Assembly (NCBI GenBank): GCA_963706325.1
Contig: CAVPLT010000004.1
Location: 672,001-736,000 of the forward strand
DNA: 64,000 nucleotides
Source: an uncultured Nitrospiraceae bacterium
GTDB taxonomy: Bacteria; Nitrospirota; Nitrospiria; Nitrospirales; Nitrospiraceae
Reading direction: 5' to 3'
Part shown: piece after piece, positions 55,577-62,583 of the stretch
Layout of the letters: the number at the start of each line of letters is the position of its first letter
How positions within the stretch are numbered: position 1 is the stretch's first letter
Position numbers and translations under genes: made by a program
The notes under the pieces: model-generated
Database searches by the model: none
Told to the model about the DNA's origin: nothing
The model's input: only the letters and a program-made list of their open reading frames with translations

Positions 55577-56119
55577 ATGAAGTTTTGCTCTGAATGTGGG
55601 GCCGGGTTGTCGTCAAAAATTCCCCCGGGGGATAACTTGCCGCGATTTGTGTGCGACACCTGTCAGGCCATCCATTACATCAATCCAAAAATCGTTGCCG
55701 GGTGCATTCCCGAGTGGAAAGACGAAATCCTGCTCTGCCGAAGGGCTATCGAACCGCGTCTCGGCCATTGGACCTTTCCCGCAGGGTTCATGGAAATCGG
55801 AGAGAGTACCGAGCAGGCCGCGATGCGCGAAACCATGGAAGAAGCCCATGCCGACGTGGAAATCACGTCGCTGTACGCCGTGTTGAGCCTGCCTCGCATC
55901 AGCCAAGTCCATATGGTCTTCCGGGGGACGATGCGCACGCCGGACTTTAAGCCCGGCATCGAGAGCCTCGACGTGCGGTTGTTTGCCTTGAAGGACATAC
56001 CATGGGAGGACCTGGCCTTCCCGGTGATCCACGAGGCTCTCGAACGCTATGTCGCGGATGTAGCCCGCGGCACCTTCACCATGCATTTCGGCAGCGTCTT
56101 TCCCCGAATGAAATCCTAA
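55577..56119 (+). CDS. Nudix hydrolase with N-terminal zinc ribbon
   Basis: MKFCSECG...CDTC; Nudix box GFMEIGESTEQAAMRETMEEA. Confidence 0.95.
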   Translation: MKFCSECGAGLSSKIPPGDNLPRFVCDTCQAIHYINPKIVAGCIPEWKDEILLCRRAIEPRLGHWTFPAGFMEIGESTEQAAMRETMEEAHADVEITSLYAVLSLPRISQVHMVFRGTMRTPDFKPGIESLDVRLFALKDIPWEDLAFPVIHEALERYVADVARGTFTMHFGSVFPRMKS

Positions 56120-56167
56120 CTCGCATTCGATGCATATCTCGCTGTCGACACATCGGGAGCTATCCGA

Positions 56168-56291
56168 CAGGATGCTCAAAAAGGTCGTCCGGCGCGGCCG
56201 CAGCAATGCGAGGGGGCGAGGCGTACCCTCGCGGTACGTTGAGCATCCGAGCGATGCGAGAACAAAGCCGGCGGCCTTTTTCAGCATCCTG
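56168..56291. repeat. MITE-like palindromic repeat, short form
   Basis: Terminal inverted repeats CAGGATGCTCAAAAAGG / CCTTTTTCAGCATCCTG between convergent genes. Confidence 0.88.
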
Positions 56292-56293
56292 AG

Positions 56294-56602
56294 CTAATTG
56301 TTGCTGGGCATGATGAGCCCCAACTCACCCGGCGGGGGATGCACGAAGCTAAAGCCCTTCGCCTCCTGAAAATCCACCGTCATTCCGGTCGTGCGGTGCA
56401 CGCTGGCGCGATCCAGCGCAATCGTTAATCCCTCGATGTGTTGCACTTGGTCTTCTTCCTGAGCCGCGGGTTCCAATGTGATTGCCAAGGAGAGACGATT
56501 GTCATCCAGGTCGCGCAGCGTAATCCGGACGACCGGATCATCCGGATGTTCCTTGATGAGTTTCCGCAAGCGTTCGATGGCGGTCCAGGTCAGGTTCAGC
56601 AT
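56294..56602 (-). CDS. HesB/IscA-fold protein lacking cysteines
   Basis: LNLTWTAIERLRKL...VRI...EDQVQHIEGLTIALD...GMTVDF...GFSF. Confidence 0.7.
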   Translation of the reverse strand: MLNLTWTAIERLRKLIKEHPDDPVVRITLRDLDDNRLSLAITLEPAAQEEDQVQHIEGLTIALDRASVHRTTGMTVDFQEAKGFSFVHPPPGELGLIMPSNN

Positions 56603-56605
56603 GAA

Positions 56606-56881
56606 TTACGTATGCAAAGGTCGGTGAGGCGGCGCCGCGTTCTGGATATGGTGAATGTCCACGAGCTGTTCCGTGCGATCGATCGAATAGAAAATCCGCC
56701 AGTCGCCCACGGCATATTTGTGGATGGCCGGCAAATCGGCAGCGACCGGTTCATGCCGCAGATTCTCTACATTGGAAGCCAACCATTTGGTTTTGTCGAA
56801 CAGCCGTTGCGCCATGGCGGGATCGGCAGCACGCAAGTCGGTAATGACATCAGGCCGGAACGCTAAACGAAACCACGGCAT
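56606..56881 (-). CDS. RelE/ParE-family toxin-like protein
   Basis: KTKWLASN...HEP...KYAVGDWRIFYSID. Confidence 0.8.
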   Translation of the reverse strand: MPWFRLAFRPDVITDLRAADPAMAQRLFDKTKWLASNVENLRHEPVAADLPAIHKYAVGDWRIFYSIDRTEQLVDIHHIQNAAPPHRPLHT

Positions 56882-56885
56882 CGCG

Positions 56886-57104
56886 TTACCACCGCAGGCC
56901 GAGTTTATCGGCCACTTCGTCGCCCGTCAGACGTTCGGTAGAGGCCAGGGATTGCTTGAGGCGGTCGCGTATAGACTCGCCCAGTGGCGCACCCAGATCG
57001 GGGTCGCCCAGCAAGACCCGCAGCCGATCGTCGACGATCCCTTCGACCAGTTGCTTCAATTCGGCCAGGCTCAGGTTGGAGATGGTGATGGTCGGCTCGG
57101 TCAT
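56886..57104 (-). CDS. Putative antitoxin
   Basis: 72 aa, acidic, DPDLGAPL...EVADKLGLRW; directly upstream of the toxin; GGAG RBS. Confidence 0.75.
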   Translation of the reverse strand: MTEPTITISNLSLAELKQLVEGIVDDRLRVLLGDPDLGAPLGESIRDRLKQSLASTERLTGDEVADKLGLRW

Positions 57105-57373
57105 AATCACTCCTAAATAATATTTGGAGCATACGGGGCTAGTCCTGGGAATTGCAAGCAAGATAGGGGATGAGGGTGGAGCATCACGGTGGACCGATAA
57201 AAACTGGTGATGGTGCTTGTGTGGGAGGGATTGAAGCAGTATTCTTCCGGCGGGCAATAGGAAAAACCAATGCACAGTTCTTCTCTGATCTACGTCAGGT
57301 TAACAGATTTGGACCCTCTACATTCAGAAGTAGAAATTCTACCTTCGTGGGATAGCGTGAGGATGACCACGTT

Positions 57374-59610
57374 ATGATTCGCCGCATTGAGCAAATCAAA
57401 GCGTTCGGGGTTTTCGCGGACCTTCGGTGGCCTGCTACTCTCCCAGATTTCAAACAGTTCAACCTAATCTACGGTTGGAACTATTCAGGCAAGACGACAT
57501 TGTCTCGTGCCTTTCGATGCTTTGAGCAGAAGAGGCCGCATGCAGACTTCGCTGACGCACAGGTGGAGCTTAAGTCTGAGGACGGAACGGCTCACCACCT
57601 GTCCTCTCCGCAAGCCGCCCCATTGTTTCGGGTCTTCAACAGTGACTTTGTTCATGAGAACCTTGCCTTCGATGAAGGAATCGCAAATCCGATTCTGGTT
57701 CTGGGATCCGAAGACATAGCGAGACTTGAGAAGTTGGACGCTAAGAAAGCCGAACGGGAATCTACGGCCGTGCTGATCGAGGCAAATAAGCAAAAAAAGG
57801 ATGAGAAGGAAAAGAAAATTGAGAGAGCATTCACAAAGGATGCACGTGATTTGATTAAGAATCCGCTGAGTGTGCCTAATTATGACAAAACACATTTCGA
57901 ACGTGAGGTTACCGCGTGCAAAGAAACCCCCAATACCTATCTACTGAAGGATAAGGCGTTGCAGAAGTGGCTTTCCGTTTATTGCTCCACCGACAAGAAG
58001 CCTGAACTTTCCACCAAGGTGGTTTCACTCTGCTCTGTTGGGGATCTTGTGAAGAAGTCGACCGCACTTCTTAAGCGGGTCGTAACGACAAATGCCCCAA
58101 TCCCCAGGCTAAAAGAGAACCCGATCCTTGAGAATTGGGTCAATGACGGCCGGCCTCTACACGAAGGAGAAAGCACATGTCAGTTCTGTGGTCAACTACT
58201 GCCACCCGCCCTTCTGAGCCACCTGACTGGGCATTTCTCAGCAGACTACGAAAACTTGATGTCGGAACTAGACATCTTGTTGAATGCAATTCAGGTTGCT
58301 CAAGACCAGCAGTTAGTGCTCGACCATAGATCCGATTTCTATGCCGAACTCTCAGAACGATTCATCGATGCGAAAAACCGATTAGATGAACACTTGAAAG
58401 TTCGGAGCTCCGCGCTTGAGGCCCTCGAGAAAATTCTGATTGCAAAGCGAACCAAGGCATTTACGAGTCTTCTGTGCCCCGTGGTTGAAGATCCTGCGCA
58501 TCAAATTGCCACAGCAATTGAGGAAATCAACGCAATCATCGCTGAACACAATAAACAGACGACGCAATTCGACAAAAGACGTCGAGAGGCATTCAGTAAT
58601 CTCGAAAGGCACTATGCCGCGTCGTTCGTTCTGGATCAGCACTACAGCGATCATCTTCAGGAAATGGTTAGTCTCAACGCCATTATTACTGAACAGAATG
58701 AAAAGCTCTTCGCCCTAGACGGTGAAATCCGCGACCTCGAAAAGGCAGTATGTGAAGCCTCGAAGGGGGCAGAGAGAATCAATGAGCTACTCGGCCTGTA
58801 TTTCGGAAAGAATGACCTGCGCATAGTCGTGTCCGCTGACAATCGCTTTCAAATTACCCGAGCAAATGTGGTAGCGCGGAACTTGAGTGAAGGGGAGAAA
58901 ACCGCCATTGCGTTTGCCTATTTTGTGATCCACGTTCAGGATGAGAAGTATCCTTCGGATGGCCTGATTGTTGTCATCGATGATCCCATATCGAGCCTGG
59001 ATGCGAACCACTTGTTCAACACATACGCACTAATTAAGACTCAGTTAGCGGACTATCGCCAGCTCTTCGTATCGACTCACAGCTTTGAGTTCTACAACCT
59101 AATCCGGGAGTGGGTAGCAGAAGATGAGGGCAAGGATCACGCAAAGAAACCACAGGCTGGATGGAAAAATGGGGAATATTTCTTGTCAGACGGACCGTCG
59201 ATGGAACTTCGGCATTGGAGGAAATTCCCAGAGAACTCCTGCGCTTCAAGTCGGAGTATCACTATCTTTTTTCAATGCTTTGCCGGTTTCACAAAACGAG
59301 GTCGGGAGACTTCGACTGCATTTTCAACCTGCCAAACATCGTGCGGCGCTTCATGGAAGCTTTCGGCGGTATCATGATCCCATTGTCAACCGGACTAAAA
59401 GGAAAGATGACGCGCCTTTTTACTAACGAGGTTGAGCGGGAGCGCGTATGGAAATTCATCAATCATTATTCGCACAATGCTACCATCACGCGCTCACTAA
59501 ATATTCCCGATACTAGTGAATGCGTTGCTGTTGTTGATGCTTGCCTGAATGCGGTCAGGGCTTGGGATGATGAGTATTTCTCGGACCTTGAGAAAGAAGT
59601 CACAGGTTAA
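57374..59610 (+). pseudogene. RloC-like (AAA_13) ABC-ATPase/zinc-hook/HEPN protein, split by a 1-nt frameshift
   Basis: YGWNYSGKT, CQFCGQ hook, LSEGEK, DDPISSLD, STH; second frame has NIVRRFMEAF...FINHYSH; break at the A5 run near 59165. Confidence 0.85.
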
Positions 59611-59658
59611 CCAACGCTTAATGCTAGCGGTCGCGCGTAGCTCGAGCACCTTTCCAGC

Positions 59659-60255
59659 TTAAGTGGGCTTACTCTCGCACCGCTCCCCATCCGACGCCTC
59701 GCACGAACAATTCAAACAGCCATGGACGGAACAGGTGCCGCAGGCCCGTTCGATTTGGCGACGAAGCGCCGCCCTGGCTCGATGCACGCGAACTGCGGCG
59801 TTTTCGGCGGTAATGCCTGACTGCTGAGCCAAGTCTTTCAGTTTGCCTTCCTCCAGGTCCACGATCCGCAGAGCCTCGCGGTATTCTGGCTTCAGCGTCT
59901 CCAGCAGGCTGGACACGCATTGGCAGATCTCCTGACGCAATTCCGCCTCTGGTTCCTGAACATCCGGAAATTCTCTCCCCCAGGCTTCCATCGTTCGCGC
60001 GGCGGCGGAACGCTGCCGGTAATGATCGATCACGGCGTTGCGGAGAACCCGATAGAACCAGGCCACGGCCTTTTCGTCCTGCACATCGCCGCCCCGCTCC
60101 AGTCCACGCGTAAAGGCCGTTTGTAAAATATCTTCAGCCACGGCTCTCGATTCCACACGCCGCTCCAGGAATGCCAGGAATTCCTTGTGTCCCTTCACCA
60201 GTAGCGCGATGGCCTCGGGCGAAAGGGTTGTCGATGGGGTCGATTCGAGGCTCAT
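59659..60255 (-). CDS. CorE-like (Cys-rich, metal-responsive) ECF sigma factor
   Basis: AEDILQ, WFYRVLRNAVIDHYR, inter-domain CQC, C-terminal CGTCSVHGCLNCSC; no anti-sigma gene adjacent. Confidence 0.9.
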   Translation of the reverse strand: MSLESTPSTTLSPEAIALLVKGHKEFLAFLERRVESRAVAEDILQTAFTRGLERGGDVQDEKAVAWFYRVLRNAVIDHYRQRSAAARTMEAWGREFPDVQEPEAELRQEICQCVSSLLETLKPEYREALRIVDLEEGKLKDLAQQSGITAENAAVRVHRARAALRRQIERACGTCSVHGCLNCSCEASDGERCESKPT

Positions 60256-60285
60256 GGGAGCAGCTTACCAAACTATTTGCGGAAC

Positions 60286-60311
60286 TGTAAGGTTTTTGGG
60301 AGGCCTCCGTC
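60286..60311 (+). promoter_or_regulatory. ECF-type promoter for the metallothionein-like gene
   Basis: TGTAAG-N16-CGTC. Confidence 0.7.
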
Positions 60312-60360
60312 AGCCTCTGTGACGACGCAATCACGCGCCGCATATCAAAGGAGACCGGCC

Positions 60361-60522
60361 ATGGCTGACATCAAAAAATCCACCTCGCAGAAGATCGCAA
60401 AGGCAAGCTGCTGCGGAACCTGCGATTGCGCTTCCTGTGCCTGCGGGTGCCAGGCAAACGCCTGCCGCTGCGAGCAAACGAACTGCCAATGTGGATGCCG
60501 CAAACAAACCTCTGGTCGGTAG
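60361..60522 (+). CDS. Metallothionein-like peptide (53 aa, 12 Cys)
   Basis: MADIKKSTSQKIAKASCCGTCDCASCACGCQANACRCEQTNCQCGCRKQTSGR; AAAGGAG RBS. Confidence 0.85.
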   Translation: MADIKKSTSQKIAKASCCGTCDCASCACGCQANACRCEQTNCQCGCRKQTSGR

Positions 60523-60531
60523 GCTGGTGAT

Positions 60532-60560
60532 GCCCCGCCCGCCGGATTCTGAAGGGCGGG
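60532..60560 (+). terminator. Hairpin after the metallothionein-like gene
   Basis: CCCCGCCC...GGGCGGGG stem with a long loop and no U-tract. Confidence 0.4.
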
Positions 60561-60768
60561 GTCAATAACCAACCCAAGCGGTCTGTCGTGCCTGAGAAGC
60601 ATTGTGAGGATGTCGCCGCTCACGTATCATGCGTTCTCACATGAGATTCGGCTGTATGAAAGTTGGTGAACAGTGCCGACGAGCAGACGGCCAGGGAGTG
60701 CAGAAACTTGCCGACGGGAGTCCCATGCGGTAGATACTTCCTATCTGTGATGCAGGAGAACTGATCCC

Positions 60769-61230
60769 ATGCAGGGTTTAGAATTAAAAGTCCCTCCACT
60801 GGCTCTCCTTCTGTTCGCAGGTGGATGCATGTGGGTGGTCGCCTGGGCGGCGCCGGCATTTGCGTTTGCCTTTCCCGCCCGTTTTGTTTCCGCAATGGGT
60901 GTGGTGGTCATCGGGATCGCTATAGCAGGCATGGGTGTGTTTTCATTCAACCGGGCTAAGACCACCGTCAATCCTATGAAGCCCGAGTCCTCGTCCGCTC
61001 TGGTCGTGAGCGGCATCTATCAACTGACACGCAATCCCATGTATCTGGGCATCTTGCTGTTGCTGCTCGGCTGGGGCATATTCCTCTCGAACGCGCTGGC
61101 GTTCCTGATTCTTCCTGGATTCGTCCTGTATATGAATCGTTTCCAAATCGAACCAGAGGAAAGGGCGCTCACCCATATATTTGGACAAGAGTTTGTGACC
61201 TATCGTAATCAGGCCCGAAGATGGATATAA
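60769..61230 (+). CDS. Isoprenylcysteine carboxyl methyltransferase-family membrane protein
   Basis: TTVNP...LVVSGIYQLTRNPMYLG...IEPEERAL...RRWI. Confidence 0.92.
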   Translation: MQGLELKVPPLALLLFAGGCMWVVAWAAPAFAFAFPARFVSAMGVVVIGIAIAGMGVFSFNRAKTTVNPMKPESSSALVVSGIYQLTRNPMYLGILLLLLGWGIFLSNALAFLILPGFVLYMNRFQIEPEERALTHIFGQEFVTYRNQARRWI

Positions 61231-61323
61231 CCCGGCGTATGATGATTTCGTGGTAAGTCGATGGTTAGCCATGGGCAACGTTGTTCGAAGCGCTTCAATG
61301 ACATTATCGAAACCTCGCTCCTA

Positions 61324-62583
61324 ATGCGGTTCATTCACGCGTCAGACCTCCATATCGACAGCCCCTTGCGCGGCCTTGACCGTTACGAGGGCGCGCCGGT
61401 CGAGCGGTTGCGGACTGCGACCCGCAGCGCGTTTGAACGGCTGATTGATACCGCCCTCGCTGAGCGCGTGGACTTTGTGCTCTTTGCCGGCGATATCTAT
61501 GACTGCGATTGGCAGGACTTTCATACCGGCTTGTTTTTTCGCGGACAGCTGGTTCGATTAGAGCGCGCCGGGATCCGCGTATTCATCGTCCAGGGCAATC
61601 ACGATGCCCAAGGTGTCATCTCTAAGCAGTTGGTTCTGCCGCCGAACGTCACGGTATTTTCCAGCCGCACTGCCCAGACAGTCAGGCTCGATGAGCTCTT
61701 GGTGGCGATCCATGGCCGCAGCTTTCCTGAGCGCGAGGTGAACGAGGATCTCGTCCCTGCTTACCCGGCTCCGGTCCCTGGTTTCTTCAACATCGGCATG
61801 CTGCACACGAGTCTGACCGGTCGCGCCGGCCATGATACCTATGCGCCGACGGATCTGCCGACGCTACTCAGAAAAGGCTACGACTATTGGGCGTTGGGCC
61901 ATGTCCATGCGCGCGAGGTACTGAGCGAACAGCCACGCATCGTCTTTCCCGGCAACCTTCAGGGCCGGCATGCCAAAGAAACGGGCGGCAAGGGATGCGA
62001 GTTGGTCACCGTGGAGGGCGGCCGTATCGAAGCCGAGTTCGTCGTCCTCGATGTCGTTCGGTGGAGTCAGGTAGACGTGCTGCTCACTGGCGTGGATCGG
62101 CTGGAGAGCCTGAGCGAGATGTTCCATCACGCGCTGGAGCCGGTGCTGACCGGAGCCACCGACCGATTGCATGCCGTCCGTGTGACCTTGACCGGCTCGA
62201 CTGCCCTACATCGGATGGAAGCCGATCAGCCAGGCACCTTGGCCGCGGCCATGCGTGCGGCGGCGCAGGATATCAGTGAGGCAGAAGTCTGGATCGAACA
62301 GGTGCGGCTTGACCTCTCCACGCCGGTGGACCGTGCTCAGTCTGCGGAACGGCAGGATGCCGTGGGTGAATTGGTTCGTCTAGTCGATTCGATCCTGGGC
62401 GATGAGGCGGAGCTGATGCGCCGAGCGCAGGTTGAACTGGGTGAGCTCCTCAGTTCGATTCCGCAGGAAGTTGCTTCAGGAGATGTGCCGAAACTTGATG
62501 ATGCAACGGAACTGAGGGGCCTGGTGCTGGATGCCGAGGCCACGGTGTTGGCGCGCCTGAGAGCGATAGGGGAAGGCGCATGA
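61324..62583 (+). CDS. Mre11/SbcD-like metallophosphoesterase nuclease (YhaO-like)
   Basis: SDLHIDSP, AGDIYD, GNHD, MLHT, WALGHVH. Confidence 0.95.
   Translation: MRFIHASDLHIDSPLRGLDRYEGAPVERLRTATRSAFERLIDTALAERVDFVLFAGDIYDCDWQDFHTGLFFRGQLVRLERAGIRVFIVQGNHDAQGVISKQLVLPPNVTVFSSRTAQTVRLDELLVAIHGRSFPEREVNEDLVPAYPAPVPGFFNIGMLHTSLTGRAGHDTYAPTDLPTLLRKGYDYWALGHVHAREVLSEQPRIVFPGNLQGRHAKETGGKGCELVTVEGGRIEAEFVVLDVVRWSQVDVLLTGVDRLESLSEMFHHALEPVLTGATDRLHAVRVTLTGSTALHRMEADQPGTLAAAMRAAAQDISEAEVWIEQVRLDLSTPVDRAQSAERQDAVGELVRLVDSILGDEAELMRRAQVELGELLSSIPQEVASGDVPKLDDATELRGLVLDAEATVLARLRAIGEGA

Follow-up and report, generated by a model that had tools for sequence, protein, structure and literature searches.

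The window (the whole 64,000-nucleotide stretch of DNA that was analysed) contains two genes that stand head to head across a gap of 105 bp (60256-60360), one for an ECF sigma factor and one for a 53-aa peptide with 12 Cys residues. The divergent arrangement, the size and Cys content of the peptide, and its lack of His and aromatic residues (Phe, Trp and Tyr are absent) had been described in an earlier note on this DNA and are all in the sequence, as are the ribosome-binding site and the promoter-like motif that it had placed before the peptide. The features of the pair are the following:

59659..60255, minus strand: CorE-like (former ECF44) ECF sigma factor gene, 198 aa (PF04542 and PF08281)
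59677..59742, minus strand: C-terminal Cys-rich domain, Cys172 to Cys193, with Ser176 at the metal-specificity position
59917..59925, minus strand: linker CxC motif, Cys111 and Cys113, invariant in 12 of 12 aligned sigma factors
60262..60270, minus strand: predicted extended -10 element (TGG-TAAGCT), 6 nt before the sigma factor ATG
60286..60291, plus strand: predicted ECF -35 element TGTAAG, in 24 of 24 genus loci
60308..60311, plus strand: predicted ECF -10 element CGTC, 16 nt past the -35 element
60324..60339, plus strand: short 5' leader hairpin, 5 pairs, one mismatch in the source genome
60347..60353, plus strand: ribosome-binding site AAAGGAG, kept in the genus alignment
60361..60522, plus strand: 53-aa, 12-Cys metallothionein-like peptide gene
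60531..60564, plus strand: GC-rich hairpin past the peptide stop codon, no U tract (-26.6 kcal/mol, z -3.2)

The sigma factor gene and the peptide gene

A domain scan of the sigma factor found sigma2 and sigma4 only, which is the architecture of an ECF sigma factor. In NCBIfam, TIGR02937 was matched above its cut-off and the SigZ models below theirs, the best match being SigZ (103 bits vs. a cut-off of 168.65). The earlier note had called the protein CorE-like, with a CxC motif between the domains and a Cys-rich tail, and the motifs that define this group are in place: Cys111 and Cys113 in the linker, and six Cys residues (172, 175, 180, 183, 185 and 193) at the C-terminus. Compared by residue numbers, the 3-5-3-2 spacing of the first five is that of CorE Cys181, Cys184, Cys189, Cys192 and Cys194, and the four invariant C-terminal Cys residues of the CorE-like group are present together with the equivalent of Cys189. 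By its sequence features, the sigma factor fits the CorE-like group, and it is the only CorE-like sigma factor found in the source genome. Position 176, equivalent to Ala185 of CorE and Cys174 of CorE2, is Ser; a change of this residue, which follows the second Cys of the domain, is reported to switch CorE2 to copper (PMC4937300). The position was Ser, Ala or Thr in 66 of the 66 patterned relatives (of 68 rows) and never Cys, and the window sigma factor, having a non-Cys residue here, matches the copper type in this respect, as opposed to the Cd/Zn type of CorE2. In the window, the pair is flanked by an AAA_13 gene with a frameshift and by a gene of the PEMT/ICMT family; neither encodes an anti-sigma factor, the window domain scan found no anti-sigma-like neighbour and none was common among the loci described below, as the earlier note had stated for this locus.

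The Cys residues of the peptide follow the pattern CC-x2-C-x-C-x2-C-x-C-x-C-x4-C-x-C-x4-C-x-C-x-C, and by composition (small, Cys-rich, CC and CxC runs, few aromatic residues) it falls in the metallothionein class. We searched 61 related genomes, of which 30 had a match to the sigma factor at E up to 1e-20, and read the 26 loci with the closest sigma factors (72-100% identity, the source genome included). The peptide stands head to head with the sigma factor in 24 of these 26 genus loci; of the other two, one meets a contig edge after 20 codons and one, with a sigma factor of 72% identity, has no peptide. A search with the peptide matched 26 of the 39 genus genomes, in a single copy each, and 25 of the 25 that were checked adjoin the sigma factor by coordinates. 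All 12 Cys residues are invariant in the 24 genus peptides, and the basic tail is kept too. In the 23 copies of equal length, dN/dS was 0.20 over the whole peptide and 0.076 in the Cys core (codons 17-46), whereas the alternative frames contained stops in 4-15 of the 23; the N-terminal 16 residues are variable (dN/dS 0.48). The peptide ORF is therefore a real gene, being present in 24 of 26 loci with all 12 Cys residues invariant, and its Cys core is under purifying selection.

The start codon lies 7 nt downstream of the ribosome-binding site; longer in-frame starts (67 and 81 aa) were ruled out by the ribosome-binding site, the leader length and the relatives, which leaves the 53-aa start. 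An exact look-up, which a longer mis-started form would escape, found the sigma factor in a collection of 15 billion proteins and did not find the 53-aa sequence, in line with the expectation in the earlier note that gene callers would miss or mis-start the peptide. Near-identical contigs cover the peptide gene in three RNA-library runs from two studies (four runs, one probably DNA, with shares of 0.07-0.15, found using this stretch, the contigs carrying neither strand nor level), which hints weakly at its transcription; near-identical RNA cover over the sigma factor gene was absent, which is uninformative.

Searches for known relatives gave little. The peptide had no match in Pfam or NCBIfam, and none among Pfam metallothionein models and PDB sequences at E up to 10; an Rfam search of the region also returned no match. 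The metallothionein HMM test that the earlier note had proposed came out negative, with PF02069 (SmtA/BmtA) matching 0 of 36 family members, but it is a weak test because a His-containing metallothionein-like ORF of the same genome itself reaches only E 0.22. The neighbours of the peptide in the ESM Atlas were unnamed clusters of 45-52 aa (0.82-0.85, low recognition), a language-model lead to Metallothio_5 was weak (rank 20, 0.76), and the AlphaFold model (pLDDT 54, pTM 0.28) was too poor for a fold search.

The pair lies between conserved anchors (window 55577-62583, loci L001-L026), with an Mre11-like phosphoesterase gene on one side (22 of 26 loci) and a ParE-type TA pair with a Nudix gene on the other. 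The genes directly beside the pair vary (restriction, TA and AAA genes), and both of its flanks look like an insertion hotspot. The AAA_13 gene of the window (57374-59610, plus strand) matches the PADLOC candidate defence family PDC-S06, has a low GC content (~49%) and is split by a frameshift into overlapping ORFs (57374-59377 and 59161-59610), which is either a real lesion or an assembly error. The PEMT/ICMT-family methyltransferase gene downstream of the peptide (60769-61230, plus strand) occurs whole or as a remnant in 11 of the 26 genus loci, and no motif of its own was seen there; the same family stands beside three myxobacterial CorE-like sigma factors in Table S4 of PMC4937300.

Linkage of Cys-rich peptides to CorE-like sigma factors

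Against 1.84 billion representatives, the peptide profile had 35 matches, of which 32 entered an alignment of 36 rows and three, being frameshifted or run-on forms, were left out. The 36 members have 9-12 Cys residues each; His occurs in 9 and an aromatic residue in 3, at scattered positions, and no His or aromatic column is invariant. The likeness to eukaryotic metallothioneins that the earlier note had drawn thus stands for composition and is not borne out by a Pfam or PDB match or by a general absence of His. With a DNA pattern for the Cys core we found at least 119 stretches (39 of these loci spanned only ~0.7 kb), at least 27 of which are real peptides (ribosome-binding site, >20 bits) and 92 of which are repeats. 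Among the matches listed, 27 of 27 real peptides have a CorE-like sigma factor within 1.2 kb, compared to 0 of the 92 others; 24 of the 27 are head to head with it and 3 lie downstream on the same strand. Ten of the 27 listed are Nitrospira records, which overlap the genus set and are not independent of it, and 17 are from Acidobacteriota, all 17 of which adjoin a CorE-like sigma factor. The named records with these peptides carry the label Nitrospira, which places the genus, by its relatives' labels, as Nitrospira. The linkage of sigma factor and peptide is conserved across two phyla, and the conserved linkage in other genomes on which the earlier note had staked its reading was found. With antisense shadows set aside, the sigma factor is the only neighbour to recur in more than 3 of 13 acidobacterial loci. 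The peptide family is rare and patchy, given that its profile was found in 10 of 401 genomes in an even draw of its own phylum, all of this genus, and in 1 of 401, the centre genome itself, in an even draw of the acidobacterial phylum.

In a tree of 36 selected rows, the genus sigma factors nest inside the acidobacterial ones (branch support 98/92). Transfer from Acidobacteriota was considered, but acidobacterial monophyly survived an AU test (p = 0.143), and we therefore claim no donor. A pair 85% identical to that of the window (L167) lies on a short contig binned as acidobacterial, next to a Nitrospira-type neighbour gene, and is possibly a case of mis-binning or recent transfer.

The earlier note had also suggested a scan for small Cys-rich ORFs beside CorE-like sigma genes. 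We drew loci by their sigma factor, 30 from Acidobacteriota (family of G439) and the best 30 of 42 myxobacterial matches, each spanning +/-1.5 kb around the sigma factor. The acidobacterial draw gave 15 loci with a peptide only, 11 with CopA only, 0 with both and 4 with neither; the myxobacterial draw (best 30 of 42) gave 5, 20, 0 and 5, respectively. In the 60 loci together, a small Cys-rich ORF was found in 20 (background 0.0016 per 600 bp), a CopA-like pump in 31, and both in none. Some of the 15 acidobacterial peptides repeat finds of the pattern scan, and one of them belongs to the L167 pair. Since 12 of the 15 peptide-less acidobacterial sigma factors form one clade, the mutual exclusion of peptide and CopA rests on few independent events, and it holds for the +/-1.5 kb that the loci span. 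The core spacing of the window peptide recurs in 6 of the 20 draw peptides and the others differ, CorE-linked peptides being 23-106 aa long with unrelated Cys spacings. Small Cys-rich ORFs beside CorE-like sigma factors, with 7-26 Cys residues in spacings other than that of the window, were seen at L174, L175, L177, L188, L190-L193, L244, L252, L253, L259 and L262, the one at L259 being a 106-aa, 26-Cys repeat form. An order-level draw around one myxobacterial record yielded 1 sigma factor in 193 genomes.

Promoters of the pair and partner genes of the motif

The motif TGTAAG-N16-CGTC, 49 nt upstream of the peptide ATG, occurs with a spacing of exactly 16 nt in each of the 24 genus loci, while the sequence of the spacer varies, and TGTAA[G/T]-N16-CGTC precedes the peptide in 17 of the 17 acidobacterial loci among the matches listed; its chance occurrence is ~4e-5 per 100 bp. 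With a matrix built from the 17 acidobacterial sites only, the window promoter ranked top in the source genome (36.7 bits vs. 13.2). On the opposite strand, the predicted extended -10 element stands at the same spacing from the sigma factor gene in 23 of 24 genus loci; of the 14 acidobacterial loci with a head-to-head pair, 11 have it 5-8 nt ahead of a start codon, compared to a background of 0.007 per 120 nt. The sigma factor transcript is thus likely to be leaderless and made by the housekeeping sigma factor, as judged from these conserved elements, in line with the weak or absent autoregulation reported for CorE and CorE2. A sigma-70 promoter scan of the region listed neither promoter. In 23 of 24 genus loci, a fixed 18-nt spacing separates the ECF -35 element from a possible housekeeping -35 element on the opposite strand, but the corresponding spacing in Acidobacteriota (10-35 nt) is not conserved; that an overlap of the two -35 elements might serve self-repression is speculation. 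The leader hairpin, a structure picked by eye, is paired in 93.7% of cells, with two-sided changes at 2 pairs (16 sequences), compared to 8-53% in slid controls. An inverted repeat like the 3' hairpin also occurs in the genus loci, and a terminator scan did not list the hairpin at 60531..60564.

In the 39 genus genomes, the strict motif has 44 matches, compared to 3 for a reversed control. Twenty-five of the 44 are peptide promoters, and 18 of the remaining 19 sites were read: 6 stand before copZ-copA-like operons, 9 before DUF4396 operons (one with a multicopper oxidase), 1 before a decayed DUF4396 operon, 1 at a contig end and 1 before an unrelated gene, the operon families having been confirmed on representatives and assigned elsewhere by shared sequence. 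The motif also precedes copZ-like or DUF4396 genes at 4 of 4 distant paralogous sigma factors, and cupredoxin and CPC-type ATPase genes are among its partners. In four genomes (G021, G026, G027 and G035) the copZ-copA-like or DUF4396 operons with the motif are distant and only one CorE-like sigma factor was found, so that these operons are likely driven in trans. Two more copies of the motif occur in the source genome, one ahead of a DUF4396 gene (C4:663109) and the other ahead of a lipoprotein gene (C7:76957); the genome also encodes a CopA-like pump, near which no such site lies. Going by the motif, the window sigma factor probably also reads these two distant promoters. A one-gene regulon, suggested by the first genome matrix, was rejected because that matrix had missed the TGTAAT-type site. 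Of the minimal two-gene circuit described in the earlier note, the adjacent pair is real; with two more motif sites and one CorE-like sigma factor in the genome, and copZ-copA-like operons behind the motif in relatives, the circuit is probably not strictly two genes.

At the lipoprotein site (L199:958-2103, G000 C7:76957 onward), a CorE-class promoter precedes a conserved uncharacterised lipoprotein gene, and the DUF4396 gene and paralogous sigma factor of relatives are reduced to a remnant; the lipoprotein, which has no family in Pfam, turns up repeatedly in predicted copper operons. Some acidobacterial pairs have beside them a gene for an exported DUF4177-repeat protein (L061:1668-2252, also L059 and L063), which at L061 carries its own copy of the motif.

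In myxobacteria, TGTAA[GTC]-N16-CGTC was found in 15 of 30 CorE-like loci (best 30 of 42 matches; reversed control 0), mostly before copA, copZ or a small Cys-rich ORF; the Polyangia record L116 we take to belong to Myxococcota. As far as sequence comparison goes, the motif tracks CorE-like sigma factors in three phyla. Its TGTAAC form agrees with the tested CorE promoters as described in text (AAC, then G 16-18 nt on), the published consensus standing in a figure; ECF238 as a whole has been reported to lack a conserved promoter.

Proposed mechanism, alternatives and known systems

We consider it probable that a copper-activated CorE-type sigma factor drives an adjacent 53-aa metallothionein-like copper sink from TGTAAG-N16-CGTC. 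The proposal starts from the two genes, their linkage in two phyla, the purifying selection that acts on the Cys core, and the motif with its place before copper-handling genes. The sigma factor would be made at a steady low level from its leaderless transcript and would need no anti-sigma factor; copper would bind its own Cys motifs and activate it; and the activated holoenzyme would open the promoter of the peptide. The peptide, translated from a short mRNA with 5' and 3' hairpins, would fold around metal-thiolate clusters and act as a cytoplasmic copper sink, in place of the CopZ/CopA pump that other members of the sigma family control, until lower free copper ended the response. Copper is the likely signal, as judged by sequence, because genes of the copZ-copA-like, DUF4396 and multicopper-oxidase types lie behind the motif and because the sigma factor carries the copper-type residue. 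In the CorE precedent, Cu(II) turns the sigma factor on and Cu(I) turns it off (PMC3107203). A Cu(I) sink therefore need not give simple negative feedback, and could lengthen as well as end the response. The peptide may also be partly redundant, given the CopA-like pump, a second metallothionein-like ORF and a DUF326 protein in the genome. The second ORF (L197:1568-1729, G000 C4:798567-798728) is Cys/His-rich, with 53 aa and 8 Cys residues, has a weak full-length match to the prokaryotic metallothionein family PF02069 (E 0.22), and has no CorE-class motif upstream. The DUF326 protein (L198:955-1359, minus strand, G000 C4 about 810951-811358) is Cys-rich with four repeats, and we take it to be probably a cytosolic copper storage protein.

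The same wiring could answer to Zn/Cd, another soft metal or metalloid, or thiol oxidation, with the peptide as a Zn/Cd store or redox buffer. CorE2 senses Cd/Zn with a near-identical domain, CorE and its targets are reported to respond weakly to Cd and Zn, and the P1B pumps at the motif sites were identified from HMA and CPC signatures; yet the specificity position is never Cys in the 66 patterned rows, the motif stands before genes of the copZ-like, cupredoxin, multicopper oxidase and CPC-type ATPase kinds, and a CorE target was reported not to be induced by oxidants, and we regard another signal as unlikely. It is distinctly less probable that the peptide regulates the sigma factor or serves as its metal chaperone, contacting the Cys domain of that factor to strip or deliver metal as a soluble off-switch more than a bulk store. 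Such a role would suit the strict adjacency (27 of 27 among the matches listed), the conservation of all Cys residues and of the basic tail, and the lipoprotein reported to modulate the CorE2 response. However, 15 of 30 acidobacterial and 25 of 30 myxobacterial loci (the latter the best 30 of 42) have no such peptide, the range of lengths (23-106 aa) and unrelated Cys spacings of the partner peptides fits bulk chelation better than a fixed interface, and CorE and CorE2 operate with no anti-sigma factor in the published work.

The variable 16-residue N-terminus (dN/dS 0.48) ahead of a conserved Cys core recalls a bufferin- or ranthipeptide-like precursor that would give rise to a modified or exported metallophore, the enzymes being encoded elsewhere, and bufferins are copper-protective Cys peptides under an ECF sigma factor (PMC11626156). 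We think this very unlikely, as the composition of the peptide includes no hydrophobic signal stretch, a radical-SAM motif is absent in 52 loci, no neighbour besides the sigma factor recurs beyond the acidobacterial frequency given above, and no modifying enzyme lies behind the motif sites read. TG-x-AA-C...CGTC-type promoters are common among ECF sigma factors. With TGTAAC reported for ECF235, another ECF sigma factor might read the promoter, the adjacency being inherited synteny, but pair and motif are retained in more than one phylum, in three gene arrangements and between different flanks, a third phylum also has the motif concentrated at its CorE-like loci, and most of the 9 genus genomes without a strict motif also have no close sigma factor, all of which leaves this explanation a very small chance.

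Beyond the window, we extend the proposal of a copper-activated sigma factor with an adjacent copper sink only tentatively, at somewhat less than even chances: an unrecognised family of bacterial copper metallothioneins may be an alternative output of CorE-like sigma factors in Nitrospirota, Acidobacteriota and Myxococcota, in which the same sigma clade and promoter would drive either a CopZ/CopA pump or a Cys-rich sink, peptides of unrelated Cys spacings having been recruited independently into a portable cassette of ~900 bp, with TGTAA[G/T/C]-N16-CGTC as the general CorE-family promoter. The pair adds a candidate metallothionein family with a sigma-factor switch, and it may account for the role of a Nitrospira CorE-like sigma factor with no listed metal neighbour. 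The motif offers a promoter consensus for a sigma group reported without one, from which regulons become predictable. The module is compact and could be put to use as a part in copper biosensing or bioaccumulation, and it bears on copper buffering in nitrifiers and soil acidobacteria.

The closest described systems are CorE and CorE2 of Myxococcus xanthus (former ECF44; ECF238 or ungrouped), which have the same sigma2-sigma4 architecture, linker CxC and C-terminal Cys domain (PMC3107203, PMC4937300). The window sigma factor resembles CorE in its identical Cys spacing, in having no anti-sigma neighbour, in the copper-handling genes behind the same promoter class and, likely, in not being autoregulated. 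Whereas the tested targets of CorE and CorE2 are pumps, an oxidase, a chaperone and a CDF exporter (CorE is reported to control P1B ATPases, an HMA protein and a multicopper oxidase), the adjacent predicted target in the window is a tiny Cys-rich peptide. In a survey of 67 CorE-like sigma factors (PMC4937300), the term 'metallothionein' appears in none of the four supplement files searched; Table S4 of the survey lists Nitrospira defluvii NIDE1902 with an opposite-strand metallophosphoesterase upstream and no small metal-binding neighbour. A metallophosphoesterase neighbour of this type also occurs in 22 of the 26 genus loci, and by analogy NIDE1902 is likely an orthologue of the window sigma factor whose peptide was missed. 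No CorE-like sigma factor paired with a metallothionein was found in the titles and abstract starts searched, figures and subscription papers lying outside their scope (further ECF, metallothionein and copper literature: PMC7826278, PMC6851896, PMC7558416, PMC13578184, PMC10141476, PMC8999054); both parts are of known kinds, and the pairing is apparently undescribed.

The characterised bacterial metallothioneins are few (SmtA-type and MymT) and repressor-controlled. SmtA and BmtA have conserved His ligands and an aromatic zinc-finger core, and SmtA-type metallothioneins are under SmtB/ArsR control. The window peptide resembles SmtA, BmtA and PmtA (PF02069) in being small and Cys-rich, and the SmtA type likewise sequesters metal in the cytoplasm; unlike SmtA, the peptide family has no conserved His or aromatic residue, the SmtA zinc-finger fold is not supported, and no SmtB/ArsR repressor adjoins the pair among the window neighbours, the sigma factor being the only neighbour shared across loci. 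MymT, the mycobacterial copper metallothionein, was likewise a small, formerly unannotated Cys-rich ORF and is a Cu(I) sink; it is under the CsoR-family repressor RicR, whereas the window peptide is predicted to be under a sigma factor. Library scans of Pfam, NCBIfam and PDB gave no sequence link to MymT. Bufferins (Caulobacter BufA, SigF/NrsF; PMC11626156) are ECF-controlled Cys peptides that buffer copper, as proposed here, but they carry a Sec signal, MNIO-made thiooxazoles and an anti-sigma factor, none of which was seen at the window pair. Animal and fungal metallothioneins share with the peptide ~23% Cys in CC and CxC runs, an absence of aromatic residues, and no predicted metal-free fold; HMM and PDB searches with the peptide returned no match to them at E up to 10.
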